Origin: Escherichia coli O127:H6 str. E2348/69
GTDB taxonomy: Bacteria > Pseudomonadota > Gammaproteobacteria > Enterobacterales > Enterobacteriaceae
NCBI RefSeq assembly: GCF_000026545.1
Contig: NC_011601.1
Reading direction: 5' to 3' (one strand)
Length of the DNA: 64,000 nucleotides
In this document: in pieces, positions 50,321 to 55,332 of the stretch
Position numbering within the stretch: the stretch's first letter is position 1
Layout of the letters: each line of letters starts with the position of its first letter
Notes under the pieces: model-generated
The model's database searches: none
Told to the model about the DNA's origin: nothing
The model's input: only the letters and a program-made list of their open reading frames with translations
Made by a program: the position numbers and the translations under genes

Positions 50321-50616
50321 TTGTCTTTCTCCTGAGACTCAGCGGCCATTTTCAGATACTGTTCAGGACAGTGCGCCATGACGCGCTGAAACAATGCCAG
50401 TGCCAGGTTGCGCTGCCCTTCGTTGAATGCAGTTAAGTGCGAATCACCAGCGAAGCATGGTGAGAACACCTTTCCCCTCTCCAGCATCGACCAGATAACG
50501 CGGCGGCCTTGCTCGCTACCCATAACGAACTTGATGTCGTCGATATCACGCTGAGCCAGAAGTTGCTGTTTGGCGTCAAGCTCTGCTTTGCGTCCTTCGT
50601 CGTCGATATCCATCAT
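50317..50616 (-). CDS. Hypothetical head-module protein
   Basis: 99-aa ORF overlapping both neighbours. Confidence 0.5.
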   Translation of the reverse strand: MMDIDDEGRKAELDAKQQLLAQRDIDDIKFVMGSEQGRRVIWSMLERGKVFSPCFAGDSHLTAFNEGQRNLALALFQRVMAHCPEQYLKMAAESQEKDK

Positions 50617-52283
50617 TGCTGCGGTGCTCCTGCTGCATTAGCGATAGCAGTTAATGCGCTCGGGTCGCTGGTCTGCGTTTCGCTGAGAGTCTTGGCCCCC
50701 TGCGCTGCCGCCTGACCCATAGCCATTGCCTGTGCCGCCTGAGCCTGTTTAGCTCGCTCTTCACGAATACCCTGTACCTGCTCCTGCGGAACGATGACGG
50801 TTGGCGATACGCCTGACATTTCAGAGAACGCGTCGATAGCCTGATCCACATCAAGCTTGTCGAGCGCTTCAGGTTTGAACTGCGCCAGTTGCCCGATAAA
50901 TCCAACTGTCTGCGACAGGCTGGTGAGGCCGATAGATTTCTGAGCCTGAGCCATCACAGAGATGTACTCGATACGCAGCGGCATACCCTGAAGAACGTCA
51001 GGAGGTTCGGGCAACATGTTCTTGCGGGCCATGATTGAGAACACGCGATCGATAAGCGGGTTAAGCGCTTCGTCATTCAGGCGCTCAAGCACCGGGCCAA
51101 GCATCAGCAGTTTCTCTTCCTTCATCTCGATCACCGCTTCCACCGGCATAGATCGGGTGTTGATTTTTTGCAGCATCATGAAGAGGTCAACGAAGTAGGC
51201 GCTGTTGATGGTCTGCCTAGTGTCCTGAATGTCAGCCAGCAGGTCGGCGGTATTCGGGTTTACCAGGTATGCAGGTTTGAAACCATCCTGACCGGTCAAC
51301 ACGTCGAGATATGTCACATCGCCAGGCAACAGGGAAACACGCTGATTCTTGAGCGATGTTGGGGCAACCATCGGCGGGTTAGTGGCTTTATCGATCAGCT
51401 GAGCTTTGCGCTTCTGCTCAACCTGAAGTGCTTTAACCTGACCGAGTGCCAGCATACCAGGGCAAGATGAGGCGTAAACGTCTTCGCCATTCACTTCCCA
51501 GCGCGGCGCCAGAATAGGGAATTCATCAAATCCGGATTCACGCAGCAGCTTGTCGGAGTCGCCGCCAGACTCGAAATAGACAGAGCGGTAAGGCTTGTTC
51601 TTGCTGTCCATCTTCCCGCTGTCGCGGTTGACGTTAGGTGTGATGCAGTGGTTAACCTTCACCCACGTTTCATACGTGCCGTTTTCCCACATGCCTTTTA
51701 CGGATGTGCTGACGTTATCCAGACCGAATTCCTGCACCATCTGGCGCACGGTCATGGAGAACTGGCGAATGCAGGTGTCTACGCTACCGCGCGGACTGTT
51801 AGCCAGGTAGTAACTGCCAATAGGGAAAGGCATTGTGCGGATCACGTCCTGGTCATCTTCCAGAACAGCCATAGCGCCGGTGCCGAAAGTACCCAGACTT
51901 GCGTACATAACAGGCAGTGACTGATACAAATTCGATTTGTTGAACACTTCGTTCATGCGGCGCTGCACGACTTCCAGCCAGATTTTCACCGGGCCATAGT
52001 CCATCATGTCAGGGTCAGGCGTTGCCAGTTTGAACCACGGTCGTGCCGGACTGGTGATGCCTGACATCATGCCGCTGGACAGAATTCGCTGAGCCATTGA
52101 GCCAGTGGGATCAACAATCTTGGTGTTACGGCGATCATCACGGTTTACATCAGATGTCAGAAAGCGGGAGCCACGCGGATTGATGAAGTCACTAAGATCA
52201 CGCCAATGCGATTCGAACGATGTGCGCTCATTCTTCAGCTGTGCGAGCTGCTTCAGCAGGCGCTCTTTTTCGGTTTCCGCCAT
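50613..52283 (-). CDS. Portal protein
   Basis: 556-aa ORF, first large gene of the head operon. Confidence 0.7.
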   Translation of the reverse strand: MAETEKERLLKQLAQLKNERTSFESHWRDLSDFINPRGSRFLTSDVNRDDRRNTKIVDPTGSMAQRILSSGMMSGITSPARPWFKLATPDPDMMDYGPVKIWLEVVQRRMNEVFNKSNLYQSLPVMYASLGTFGTGAMAVLEDDQDVIRTMPFPIGSYYLANSPRGSVDTCIRQFSMTVRQMVQEFGLDNVSTSVKGMWENGTYETWVKVNHCITPNVNRDSGKMDSKNKPYRSVYFESGGDSDKLLRESGFDEFPILAPRWEVNGEDVYASSCPGMLALGQVKALQVEQKRKAQLIDKATNPPMVAPTSLKNQRVSLLPGDVTYLDVLTGQDGFKPAYLVNPNTADLLADIQDTRQTINSAYFVDLFMMLQKINTRSMPVEAVIEMKEEKLLMLGPVLERLNDEALNPLIDRVFSIMARKNMLPEPPDVLQGMPLRIEYISVMAQAQKSIGLTSLSQTVGFIGQLAQFKPEALDKLDVDQAIDAFSEMSGVSPTVIVPQEQVQGIREERAKQAQAAQAMAMGQAAAQGAKTLSETQTSDPSALTAIANAAGAPQQ

Positions 52284-52297
52284 CTCTGCCTACTCCG

Positions 52298-52504
52298 TTA
52301 CTGACCAAGCAGCGTTTTACCGCTGGTGTTTGCGGTTGAAGTGTCACCCTGCGCACCAGTCAGCAGAGTAGAGCTGCGCCCTGCTGCTGCGCGGCGGCGG
52401 CGCTCTTCGTCGTCACGAGAACTGACAACTGCTGCATCCTGCTCCTGTGGCGCAGCCTGTACTTCTGGCGCTGCTGGCACTGATGGCTTGCTGCCGATAC
52501 ACAT
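52298..52504 (-). CDS. Small basic protein upstream of portal
   Basis: 68-aa ORF ending 15 bp before the portal start. Confidence 0.4.
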   Translation of the reverse strand: MCIGSKPSVPAAPEVQAAPQEQDAAVVSSRDDEERRRRAAAGRSSTLLTGAQGDTSTANTSGKTLLGQ

Positions 52505-52593
52505 AGCAATAGCTCCGTACGCAATTAAATTATTACCAATTTAACCACATATGATTTATTTAGCGTAGGATATTGACACTTATAACATCAGAT

Positions 52594-52610
52594 ATTACCT
52601 TTTAGGTAAT
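52594..52610. promoter_or_regulatory. Operator-type palindrome ATTACC-N5-GGTAAT (site a)
   Basis: ATTACCTTTTAGGTAAT with TTGACA 16 bp upstream; lies between the head operon and the plus-strand island. Confidence 0.5.
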
Positions 52611-53056
52611 TGGTTCGTGTGTTGAATTGATGAATTGCGGAGGTGGTTATGTAACCGCTTGTGCAGTAGCCCGGAGTACCGCAGCAATAAATTGGGCTTA
52701 AAAGTAAAGGCGGTGGATAAGCGGAGCATCATCTCCGCACATAACTAAAAGCGCGCTTCAGTGAATGACCTTTGAGCCTGGTCGTTAAATCCAAACGGTG
52801 GAGTGCGCTTTCAGGTGTGTAGCAGTACGGCATATGGCACATGTGCCGCAGCGGTCCGGATGGGTTCCCTTGATGCTACTTCCCCAGCCGGGTAGCCGGA
52901 ATGTGCAAGCCAGTGTTAGGTAAGCACGGACAGACGATTCACCATCGTGGCGATACGGTGTGACACCTCGGAAGAGACGAGGATGCAACGATGATAGCAT
53001 TGGGGTGACCGGTTAATCCCATGACGATAACCGATACAGGCGCAGTGCTCTCTTCG

Positions 53057-53169
53057 TTGTGGTTAGCTCAGATAGGTTAGAGCTCCATCCATGCTTGCCA
53101 TTGCTGCATGGGCGGGGAATGGGTTCCGAAAGGATCGCCGCGCAGGTTCGAATCCTGCACCACAACCCA
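53057..53169 (+). ncRNA. tRNA-like element with non-canonical 58-nt middle region
   Basis: 7-bp acceptor stem (TTGTGGT/ACCACAA), D-arm TAGCTCAGATAGGTTAGAGC, T-arm GCAGGTTCGAATCCTGC, discriminator and encoded CCA; no standard anticodon arm. Confidence 0.5.
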
Positions 53170-53338
53170 ATCACGCCTTAGGACCGTGATGAAGCGCCCA
53201 TAAGAACAATGCTGTGTAGCCTTTGGCGGTGGCAGTTTCCCTTGATGCTGACCACCGTCACTTTTACACCAGAACGCCATTGCGATGACGTTGCGCTGTA
53301 AACCCGTAAGCCATGGAAGGCACCCTTGCTTCCATTTC

Positions 53339-53363
53339 GCCCGGTTCGTCCGGGCATTTTTTT
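53339..53363 (+). terminator. Intrinsic terminator downstream of the tRNA-like element
   Basis: GCCCGG-TTCGT-CCGGGC hairpin followed by ATTTTTTT. Confidence 0.65.
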
Positions 53364-53375
53364 AAGGTGATTAGA

Positions 53376-53807
53376 ATGAGTAAAGACCTGTTCGACATGA
53401 AGCGCCTTCCGGTTGACCGGGTTGCTGCGAGAGTTGTTGGTAAGGGCGTTGATTGGACGCCAAATAAAGTTATTCAAACTGGTGACAGCGATCTTCCGTT
53501 GCCAGTATTTCCTGCATATAACATTAAAAACCCGCAACAACGACGCGAAGTGCAAGCAATGATCGGAAGAAAGAGCGGGAGATTGACAATAATTGGTCTC
53601 GCGGTCACACAGGGAGCAAAAAATAAAGGGGCTCGCTATGTTGCTCGTTGTGTTTGCGGGATTTATACGTATCGCAGAGCAAAAAATTTCAAGAATAATT
53701 CTGATGATTTTGACGGATGCGAGCGCTGCAGAGAACTGTTGTTTCTCAAAAGGGAAGAAGTTAAACGCAGAACGGGAAAATGGGTTGACTGGAAAGAGCT
53801 GATGTAA
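53376..53807 (+). CDS. Cys-rich protein of unknown function (moron gene)
   Basis: ATG at 53376 with AAGGTGA ribosome-binding site; 143 aa containing CVCG...CERC; opposite strand to the flanking terminase and portal genes. Confidence 0.55.
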   Translation: MSKDLFDMKRLPVDRVAARVVGKGVDWTPNKVIQTGDSDLPLPVFPAYNIKNPQQRREVQAMIGRKSGRLTIIGLAVTQGAKNKGARYVARCVCGIYTYRRAKNFKNNSDDFDGCERCRELLFLKREEVKRRTGKWVDWKELM

Positions 53808-53810
53808 GAC

Positions 53811-53824
53811 TGTGACACGTCACA
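53811..53824. repeat. Palindrome TGTGACACGTCACA (copy 2)
   Basis: GTGAC-AC-GTCAC dyad directly 5' of the terminator at 53828-53852. Confidence 0.5.
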
Positions 53825-53827
53825 ACT

Positions 53828-53852
53828 AGCCCGCCGATGCGCGGGCTTTTTC
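53828..53852 (+). terminator. Intrinsic terminator after the Cys-rich ORF
   Basis: AGCCCGC-CGATGC-GCGGGCT hairpin followed by TTTTT. Confidence 0.6.
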
Positions 53853-55332
53853 ATGCATAGGGATCGTACTCTGTGAGAGCCTTGCCCTGTTGGCTCTGTT
53901 GCTGCCCATAGTTAAACTGTTTTTTGGTGACCGGCGCGGCATATGTCAGCACGTAGGCGTCGGCATCGTTCGGGGATCTGCCAAGCAACTCTTTGACTTC
54001 TTCCTTGTCCTGCAAAATCTTCCTGCTGTCCTTCAGCCTGACCTTGTACTCCGGCGCACTCAGCTCATCGGCAAGGTTCTGGCTATCCAGTTGCGCCCCA
54101 AGCTTCAGTGCGTCGCGGGCTGATTTGTACATCTCCCCGCGCTTATTGCCCATCTCGGGATCCGCGGTACCGCTTCCGAACTGAATCAGCGTCCAGTTTC
54201 GCCCCCAGTTATCGCCAACTGATTTAAGCCCGGTCCCGTACCCGTAATCGATAAACACAGCATCGGCCTGGTACTGGTCCTCGAAGTCGGCAATTATTTT
54301 GGCAAACAATACGTCGTCAGTGGTGCGTTGCCACTCCCCGAGTTTCTTACAGTGCAGTCCCTGCCGAAGATAGATAACCGCCGGGTCTTTACCCTGGTGA
54401 GACGGGTCGACGCCAAGAACTACAGCAGCGTGCTGAACCTGTGCCGGAGTAATAACCCTGCCAACAGCTGGCTGAGTCAGGCCAGACGGAATGAACTGGT
54501 TTTCAGACGCATCAGGGAAGATCCCGCGCACGCGAACCTTCACGAAGTCGCTGTCTTCGCCGTAGTCGTCCACCCACTTTTGCAGTTGCTGCTTGTTGGT
54601 GCCTTCCACGGTGCGGCTGTCAATCTGCGCGCACTTCCAGCGGTGTTTGTACTTGCGGAAACATTCACGGAAACGCCCGGTGTTACGCGTCGGGTTACCG
54701 AACGCCACCCAGATGATTTCGGTGTCTTCGTCCGTCAGCGCCCCTTCAGCTACCTCCCACACCAGATCGGCAATGTTGGATGCTTCGTCGAATACCACGA
54801 TGATGCGCTTGCGCTCGTTGTGCAGCCCTGCGAACGCCTCGGTGTTGTGTTCAGACCATGGGATTGCGTCAGCGCGCCAGCGTTTATCGTGACCGGGATC
54901 GTTGCTGTACATCGCTGTGGCGGTGCAGGTGAACCACTCTTTCGTAATAGCCAGGTTCGACCATTTGATGATTTCCGGCCATGTCTTGGTACGCAACTGA
55001 TTGTCGGTGTTGGCGGTCACCACCACCTTGCAGTCCTCGCAGGTGGACATGCCCCAGTTAATCAGCATCGAGATGAAAGCAGATTTGCCGATACCATGGC
55101 CGGATGCGCGCGCCAGCATCAAAGGCTGGTGACGCGTCGCTGGGTTCTGGAGGTGATCGCGTATCTCGCGGAAGGCGTCAGCCTGCCACTTTCTGGGACC
55201 TGTGGCGTGCGCCAGCTCTGTGCCATCCTCTCCCCACGGAAACGCGTACAGCGCATAGCCCAGCGGGTCATACGTGAACGAGGCGATATCCTCAACGAGC
55301 TGCTCTTCCGGCGACATGGCTTCGGCTGTCAT
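53851..55332 (-). CDS. Terminase large subunit
   Basis: 493-aa ORF with ATPase-like and nuclease-like regions, downstream of the small-subunit gene. Confidence 0.8.
   Translation of the reverse strand: MTAEAMSPEEQLVEDIASFTYDPLGYALYAFPWGEDGTELAHATGPRKWQADAFREIRDHLQNPATRHQPLMLARASGHGIGKSAFISMLINWGMSTCEDCKVVVTANTDNQLRTKTWPEIIKWSNLAITKEWFTCTATAMYSNDPGHDKRWRADAIPWSEHNTEAFAGLHNERKRIIVVFDEASNIADLVWEVAEGALTDEDTEIIWVAFGNPTRNTGRFRECFRKYKHRWKCAQIDSRTVEGTNKQQLQKWVDDYGEDSDFVKVRVRGIFPDASENQFIPSGLTQPAVGRVITPAQVQHAAVVLGVDPSHQGKDPAVIYLRQGLHCKKLGEWQRTTDDVLFAKIIADFEDQYQADAVFIDYGYGTGLKSVGDNWGRNWTLIQFGSGTADPEMGNKRGEMYKSARDALKLGAQLDSQNLADELSAPEYKVRLKDSRKILQDKEEVKELLGRSPNDADAYVLTYAAPVTKKQFNYGQQQSQQGKALTEYDPYA

Follow-up and report, generated by a model that had tools for sequence, protein, structure and literature searches.

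The window analysed here is a stretch of 64,000 nucleotides from Escherichia coli O127:H6 strain E2348/69 (contig NC_011601.1) and represents an epsilon15-like (Uetakevirus) prophage of this enteropathogenic strain, whose relatives include epsilon15, SPN1S/SPN9TCW, PAT1 and phiV10. The gene under study, WP_000031196.1, encodes a protein of 143 aa and is annotated in RefSeq as a hypothetical protein. It is already catalogued (PHROG 18493, WP_000031196.1), without a function, a domain name or an analysis of its context. A 561-bp region of the locus is 100% identical in three genomes of the E2348/69 lineage; none of the remaining 5,423 complete genomes of E. coli contains it at 85% identity or above. 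The coordinates of the gene and of the features around it are collected in Table 1.

Table 1. Features of the locus, in window positions
Feature	Position	Strand	Basis or remark
Portal gene	50613-52283	-	
gp3-like gene (68 aa)	52298-52504	-	
Candidate sigma-70 promoter TTGACA-17-TACCTT with overlapping inverted repeat TTACC-N5-GGTAA	52573-52609	+	Conservation
Structured modular non-coding leader, holding the tRNA-like element	52610-53338	+	Folding; alignment across phages
tRNA-like element	53056-53169	+	Canonical acceptor, D and T arms
Intrinsic terminator T1	53339-53363	+	Pattern scan; folding energy; compensatory changes
Shine-Dalgarno sequence AAGGTGA	53364-53370	+	Invariant in 31/31 aligned phage loci, whatever the cargo
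143-aa cargo ORF	53376-53807	+	ATG start; ORF list
Near-palindrome GTGACACGTCAC (GTGACATGTCAC in most relatives)	53812-53823	.	Right flank of the cargo slot
Intrinsic terminator T2	53828-53852	+	Pattern scan; folding; overlaps the TerL stop codon on the other strand
TerL, large terminase	53851-55332	-	

The gene, its start and its flanking signals

The first-pass annotation of this DNA had described a 143-aa ORF with a good ribosome-binding site, antiparallel to the terminase and portal genes and bracketed by two terminators, and all of this was borne out. The ORF lies on the plus strand, and the genes for TerL, the small terminase TerS, the gp3-like protein and the portal protein all lie on the minus strand. 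The Shine-Dalgarno sequence precedes the ATG by 5 nt (6 nt when counted from the GGTG core). In the family alignment of 20 members, all homologues share a Met-Ser/Thr-Lys start, which favours the start at 53376 over an upstream ATG at 53313. Comparison with four orthologues gave dN/dS values of 0.05-0.08, with synonymous sites near saturation. The ORF is thus a real gene under strong purifying selection.

Terminator T1 ends 12 nt before the ATG. Its sequence, GCCCGG-UUCGU-CCGGGC followed by an A and seven U residues, forms a stem of six G-C pairs with a 5-nt loop and a folding energy of -13.1 kcal/mol (z -4.0), and compensatory changes in it (GC to AU, GC to CG) were found in 12 of 31 related sequences. 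T1 closes an upstream structured RNA unit, and its T-run abuts AAGGTGA with a gap of 0 nt. Terminator T2 begins 20 nt past the cargo stop codon, and compensatory variants of it are seen in PAT1 and phiV10; a hairpin is also possible on the minus strand there, but the U-tract is poor on that strand. The number of terminator-like sites as such was not significant (3, against 2.0 +/- 1.5 in shuffled sequences).

A cargo slot behind a structured RNA leader

The terminase-to-gp3 intervals of the window, epsilon15, PAT1 and SPN9TCW were aligned, and the alignment defined a slot. Its left flank is conserved and consists of T1 and, as the final conserved element, AAGGTGA, with ATGAG following after 5 nt; its right flank, also conserved, consists of GTGACATGTCAC and T2. 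The ORF between these flanks is swapped for unrelated genes in the relatives. The slot has a fixed position, between the terminase genes and the gp3/portal genes and antisense to the late operon. The palindrome GTGACATGTCAC occurs in 44 of 77 epsilon15-like loci regardless of the cargo. It separates the stop codon of the cargo from T2 and could act as a small hairpin or be bound by a protein.

A census of the cargo was taken over these 77 loci, obtained from IMG/VR, 57 of which keep the left flank. At least 10 unrelated cargo families occupy the slot in these 57 loci. PHROG 322 is the most frequent (25 loci), the WP_000031196.1 family occupies 11 slots and PHROG 4846 occupies 10; further occupants are several membrane proteins and one intact HNH homing endonuclease, the only cargo family for which a known function was found. 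Unrelated genes thus replace the 143-aa ORF in about 80% of the related phages. The GC content of the cargo ORF is 45%, compared with 57% for TerL and 54% for portal, and the cargo alleles have diverged far more than the flanks. The number of families within the same flanks, the foreign GC content and the divergence of the alleles mark the slot as a cargo hot-spot, and the 143-aa gene fits, on these comparisons, a swappable accessory (moron-type) cargo of epsilon15-like prophages. The earlier proposal of a moron-type accessory gene therefore held, given the foreign composition and the 10 or more cargo families that share the same flanks.

Several further observations were made on the slot and its neighbours in related phages. 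The HNH homing endonuclease in the slot of locus L133 (IMG/VR 2806310681_000007) is an intact protein of 139 aa that matches PHROG 6254 at 3e-31. The identities of TerL and of portal vary independently among loci (e.g. 83% and 99%, 94% and 81%), so that the slot looks like a recombination boundary. The TerL of PAT1 (L002, 4325-6775) has 816 aa, compared with 493 aa, and carries a LAGLIDADG homing-endonuclease domain at residues 280-355; it is therefore probable that this is an intein. The annotated start of SPN9TCW_003 (L003, 3334-3840) falls within the conserved non-coding RNA; since the conserved ribosome-binding site and ATGAG lie further downstream, the true product is likely to have about 138 aa and not 168 aa. 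The slot region is not mentioned in the paper on the epsilon15-like phage ZX5 (PMC9782041).

The 143-aa gene had been taken as independently transcribed, and this was not supported. A promoter scan of 52200-54200 gave nothing above threshold, and neither the interval from T1 to the ORF nor the conserved 3' module of the RNA yielded a convincing promoter; moreover, since the T-run of T1 abuts the ribosome-binding site, there is no room for a promoter of its own, and the unit that is swapped starts at the ribosome-binding site right after T1. Only one conserved promoter-like element could account for transcription of the RNA unit and, if T1 is read through, of the cargo as well: the candidate TTGACA-17-TACCTT at 52573-52601, about 800 nt upstream of the cargo gene. 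Both hexamers and the 17-nt spacing are retained in 75 of 77 loci, in which the spacer occurs in 31 different sequences; fixed hexamers and spacing with a variable spacer are the signature of a promoter. Its candidate -10 hexamer is weak (3/6), and the element lies below the promoter-scan threshold. The overlapping inverted repeat TTACC-N5-GGTAA is annotated as a repressor site in the epsilon15 record. The candidate promoter belongs to the slot and not to the cargo, and the cargo gene is, as we infer, most likely expressed from it through read-through of T1. T1 looks strong, and read-through may be very low. Our literature search found nothing on WP_000031196.1 or on transcription of the epsilon15-like prophage of E2348/69.

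In the conserved region between gp3 and the RNA unit, the sequence TTATTACC occurs twice, at 52530-52546 and 52592-52609. One TTATTACC copy lies within the operator-like inverted repeat and the other about 60 nt nearer to gp3; the pair may be sites for one regulator of divergent promoters.

These features distinguish the slot from a classical moron. The 143-aa gene is like the morons of the Hendrix/Juhala concept, and like those at P2 positions (PMC3573123), in being non-essential, foreign in composition, antiparallel to the structural genes around it, bounded by terminators and variable among phages that are otherwise alike. A classical moron carries its own promoter, whereas here the coding sequence alone is exchanged and the frame of promoter, RNA, terminator and ribosome-binding site is fixed and common to all cargo genes. 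The paper on the neaT moron concerns a P2-like prophage and not the epsilon15-like slot (PMC3573123).

The leader that T1 closes is about 750 nt long and strongly folded (minimum free energy -289 kcal/mol, z -4.7). Its modules differ between phages, and a 3' domain of about 125 nt is conserved. It gave no match to Rfam at gathering or relaxed thresholds. The whole non-coding unit (52573-53363, plus strand, about 790 nt) is antisense to the late operon and is present in essentially all epsilon15-like phages with any cargo gene. In an RNAalifold model, CGCC at 53285-53288, within the conserved 3' domain, pairs with the GGUG of the Shine-Dalgarno sequence (53366-53369); in this model CGCC could act as an anti-Shine-Dalgarno sequence, although both partners are invariant at every position and so show no covariation. 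Some phages carry a genuine tRNA-Arg(UCU) within the leader, which argues for transcription of that strand.

In the tRNA-like element of the window, two hairpins (about 56 nt) replace the anticodon arm. The element is labelled "pseudogenic tRNA-Gly" by PGAP/RefSeq; with ARAGORN and Rfam (gathering and relaxed thresholds), the window yielded neither a tRNA nor any RNA family already described. The sub-slot that it occupies holds the genuine tRNA-Arg(UCU) in SPN9TCW and in loci L025 and L027, and in PAT1 it holds unrelated inserts with the same GTTGTGG...CCACAAC stem. The tRNA-like segment is bracketed by a 13-nt direct repeat, TTCCCTTGATGCT, at 52865-52877 and 53237-53249. Exactly the DNA between the TTCCCTTGATGCT copies is missing from epsilon15, which points to its loss or gain through recombination at this repeat.

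The protein and its zinc-module family

The protein has a mass of 16.4 kDa and a pI of 10.0, with 30 Lys and Arg residues against 16 Asp and Glu residues and no histidine, so the basic context assigned to it at first was confirmed. The description as Cys-rich was an overstatement: there are exactly four cysteines in 143 residues (C92, C94, C115 and C118), though none of them varies among 20 members of the family. Of the two CxxC pairs reported, the second (C115-E-R-C118) stands and the first is a CxC pair (C92-V-C94), so that the arrangement is CxC-20-CxxC. An N-terminal PVDRVAARV motif and a DSDLPLP motif are accompanied by one zinc module (GRKSGRLTIIG...RYVARCVCG...CERC), after which there is space for no more than some 25 residues, among them a basic C-terminal helix. 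The AlphaFold2 model has a pLDDT of 75, and its core, spanning roughly residues 40-135, is confident. Strands are predicted on either side of the first cysteine pair, at 87-92 and 97-101, a helix begins after the second pair, and the PVDRVAARV and DSDLPLP motifs are predicted to be disordered.

The protein showed no domain match in Pfam (even at E = 10) or NCBIfam and no defence-family match in PADLOC at E <= 1. It matched the function-less family PHROG 18493 at 1.6e-63 and, weakly, PHROG 374 "HNH endonuclease" (1.9e-5), in the accessory module only (profile positions 189-249 of 617). A PDB search with the single sequence gave a chance-level match only (E 0.67). The PDB profile search gave a marginal match to the zinc ribbon of the RNA binder bL31 (E 0.025) through the common CxCG...CxxC pattern; no other solved structure was matched by sequence beyond chance level. 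Foldseek searches of AFDB50 and BFVD returned full-length matches to uncharacterised proteins only, together with partial matches to HNH and AP2 proteins; no match to a known DNA-binding domain fold was found.

A word-indexed search detected only 22 relatives, and an exhaustive profile search detected 8,737 cluster representatives at E <= 1e-3. Hundreds of these are full-length proteins of 125-150 aa from diverse Proteobacteria, all uncharacterised. In some of the other matches the central module (residues ~55-118) is repeated in up to 11 copies, in the form DLTGxxFGxLTVL...W-x-C-x-C-x-C-G-N17-S-C-G-C. The family HMM matched the repeat arrays at E = 7e-38 over 11 stretches; one repeat protein, P0036, matches PHROG 18493 at 1.4e-37, and repeat proteins also match PHROG 374. 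Alignment of the family with a Firmicute repeat by hhalign gave a probability of 96.9% (E = 1.8e-10) over 32 columns, which cover the first half of the module only. The repeats are present in 363 cultured phage genomes, where they are mostly annotated as HNH endonuclease, transcription factor or hypothetical protein, and one array is fused to a Cro/C1 HTH domain. No Pfam family was found for this CxCxCG...SCGC module (P0030, P0036 and relatives), which has thousands of members. On profile evidence, the zinc core of the 143-aa protein and the CxCxCG...CGC repeat found ahead of HNH and AP2 domains are homologous. With four invariant cysteines and such a core, the zinc-ribbon nucleic-acid-binding protein suggested by the first-pass annotation appears a reasonable assignment.

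The CxCxCG...CGC repeat is probably the "CapR domain" of published work, since the cysteine spacing of that domain in CasPRs (C33/35/37 and C56/58) is identical to that of the CxCxCG-N17-SCGC repeat matched by the family profile. CapR of the Vibrio cholerae satellite PLE is a stand-alone 15.5-kDa protein related to the N-terminal domain of phage homing endonucleases (Netter et al. 2021, PMC8096241); it binds DNA and represses transcription, and its cysteines are essential (PMC8096241). CasPRs are prophage proteins with a CapR and an AP2 domain, and they silence cas genes by binding within them (Sanderson et al. 2026, bioRxiv 10.64898/2026.02.23.707548). They require the CapR-domain cysteines named above and are essentially confined to Bacillota; as anti-CRISPR silencers (AcrIB12/AcrIB14), CasPRs are encoded by prophage accessory genes that lysogens express (bioRxiv 10.64898/2026.02.23.707548). 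The closest characterised relatives of the zinc module thus appear to be sequence-specific DNA-binding silencers.

Like CapR, the 143-aa protein is a small stand-alone protein on a mobile element and is essentially one four-cysteine module of the homing-endonuclease N-terminal type, with a G-x-L-x-V-x-G strand before the first pair. As in CapR-type modules, two close cysteine pairs lie between beta strands, 20 residues apart (range 19-26); the order of the pairs differs, being CxC-20-CxxC here and CxxC-24/26-CxC in CapR. The 143-aa family also differs from CapR in its own conserved N-terminal motifs, its basic C-terminal helix, its host clade and its genomic setting. With CasPRs it shares the nature of a prophage accessory gene. 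The CasPR arrangement is CxCxC-18-CxC, whereas the 143-aa protein has neither the third cysteine nor the CGC pair and is proteobacterial; since it lacks an AP2 domain (Pfam, E = 10), it is not a CasPR. A six-frame hmmsearch of the last 50 kb of phage ICP1 (76000-125956, with ORF165 and ORF174) with the family profile gave no match, and hhalign against the N-domains of ORF165 and ORF174, a profile of two sequences, gave a non-significant E of about 0.08.

In other phages, homologues of 30-54% identity belong to co-directional runs of small early genes, and in no case is a terminase nearby. In a Salmonella prophage and in Klebsiella phage SopranoGao the homologue has cI on one side and int on the other; others lie beside an MT-A70 methylase gene or near DUF1376, DnaA-like, NinG, RusA, VRR-NUC and NusG-like genes. 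No constant partner gene was found among 70 homologue loci, only generic early or nin-region neighbours, in keeping with an accessory protein that belongs to the early programme and is self-sufficient. One homologue, from a Rhizobium phage, is annotated as "HNH endonuclease"; an HNH domain in it was rejected, as Pfam finds none.

Possible functions of the protein

By analogy with CapR and CasPRs, we propose that the protein is a sequence-specific DNA binder that represses or otherwise regulates a target gene, a proposal to which we give close to an even chance. The slot is laid out as a conserved candidate promoter with an operator, a structured RNA of about 750 nt with an optional tRNA, T1, the ribosome-binding site, the ORF, the palindrome and T2. 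The cargo ORF, for which no promoter of its own was found, would be expressed from transcripts that read through T1. Its product is small and basic, contains no histidine and has a single zinc module of four cysteines, akin to the CapR-type modules that phage homing endonucleases carry next to their HNH, GIY-YIG-like and AP2 domains and that also occur in the silencers CapR and CasPRs. The zinc module and the flanking basic helix would bind a specific DNA sequence, and binding would repress or otherwise regulate a gene of the host, of a competing phage or of the prophage itself. Several results speak against this proposal: the cysteine arrangement departs from that of CapR and of CasPRs, the hhalign homology covers half of the module, the comparison with the ICP1 N-domains gave no significant score, the one marginal match of known structure, bL31, binds RNA, and the expected expression route combines a weak candidate -10 hexamer with a terminator that looks strong. 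Since the gene is not needed for virion assembly, we further propose that its benefit would be conditional.

The main alternative is that the zinc module serves protein-protein contact and that the protein is a small inhibitor of a host or rival-phage protein, for example in anti-defence or host takeover. The family occurs in early accessory regions where inhibitors are common, the predicted disordered N-terminal motifs PVDRVAARV and DSDLPLP resemble short binding motifs, and, as described above, the fold searches returned no known DNA-binding domain. However, the homologous module behaves like a unit that reads DNA, in that it occurs in tandem arrays and beside nuclease, AP2 and HTH domains; the protein has a pI of 10, and its characterised relatives bind DNA (PMC8096241; bioRxiv 10.64898/2026.02.23.707548). 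We therefore regard an inhibitor as unlikely, while still deserving consideration.

A decaying remnant of a homing endonuclease, retaining the DNA-binding domain only and now functionless, is very unlikely. The gap between TerL and portal is a typical site of homing endonuclease genes, and the intact HNH homing endonuclease in the L133 slot and the probable LAGLIDADG intein in the TerL of PAT1 are in keeping with such an origin. Against decay stand the dN/dS of 0.05-0.08 with synonymous sites near saturation, and the full-length architecture of 125-150 aa kept across hundreds of clusters in many Proteobacteria. A domesticated homing-endonuclease origin is compatible with the DNA-binder explanation and is not its rival.

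The first-pass annotation had also suggested that the protein and the adjacent tRNA-like RNA form one accessory module. The RNA adjoins the ORF and is probably co-transcribed with it in the window, and the marginal likeness of the cysteine motif to the rRNA-binding bL31 zinc ribbon (E 0.025) would suit a protein that binds the tRNA-like or structured RNA and acts with it as one system. The distribution of the two does not agree with this. In 16 IMG/VR loci with close orthologues (ORF at least 84% identical, all in the terminase-gp3 slot), the tRNA-like element is present at two, one of which is the same prophage; two others have the true tRNA-Arg and the remaining 12 have neither RNA. None of 64 loci with distant homologues has a terminase, a portal or the RNA region nearby. 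Conversely, the same RNA region precedes unrelated cargo in most relatives, among them epsilon15, SPN9TCW and phiV10. Linkage to the RNA element is thus absent in related genomes, and the suggested protein-plus-RNA module is refuted; such a joint system is most improbable, and the structured leader is the expression context of the protein and not its partner.

A packaging accessory that works with the terminase, as HNH proteins beside HK97-like terminases do, has next to no probability: the gene adjoins TerL and matches PHROG 374 "HNH endonuclease" weakly (1.9e-5), but it lies on the opposite strand behind a terminator, unrelated genes stand in its place in some 80% of related phages, homologues elsewhere lie in early regions and not in packaging modules, no clear homology to a routine packaging accessory protein was found, and an HNH packaging cofactor in particular is ruled out by the context, by the lack of a Pfam HNH domain and by the lack of histidines, without which there is no HNH motif and the protein cannot be an HNH nuclease.

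The novelty lies in assigning the domain and in describing the slot; the gene itself was known as a hypothetical one, and as it stands it is an ordinary hypothetical prophage gene with a plausible, predicted function. Taken together, the protein might be a proteobacterial counterpart of CapR and CasPRs, that is, a zinc-dependent, sequence-specific silencer of host-defence or rival-phage genes, deployed from a plug-and-play slot that is gated by a repressor-controlled promoter, a structured leader and a terminator, and its module, with about 8,700 clusters and arrays of up to 11 copies, might be a modular DNA-reading unit of phages. This joint reading is possible but, in our estimate, doubtful as a whole.

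If the protein is a DNA-binding silencer, the strategy of CapR and CasPRs, by which mobile elements switch off host or rival genes through domesticated DNA-binding modules of homing endonucleases, would reach beyond Vibrio satellites and Bacillota prophages into those of enterobacteria, and a very large protein family without a Pfam entry would become more accessible. With its fixed regulatory flanks and freely exchanged coding sequences, the slot is a convenient natural catalogue of candidate genes for accessory, defence or counter-defence functions in the Uetakevirus prophages of pathogenic E. coli and Salmonella.
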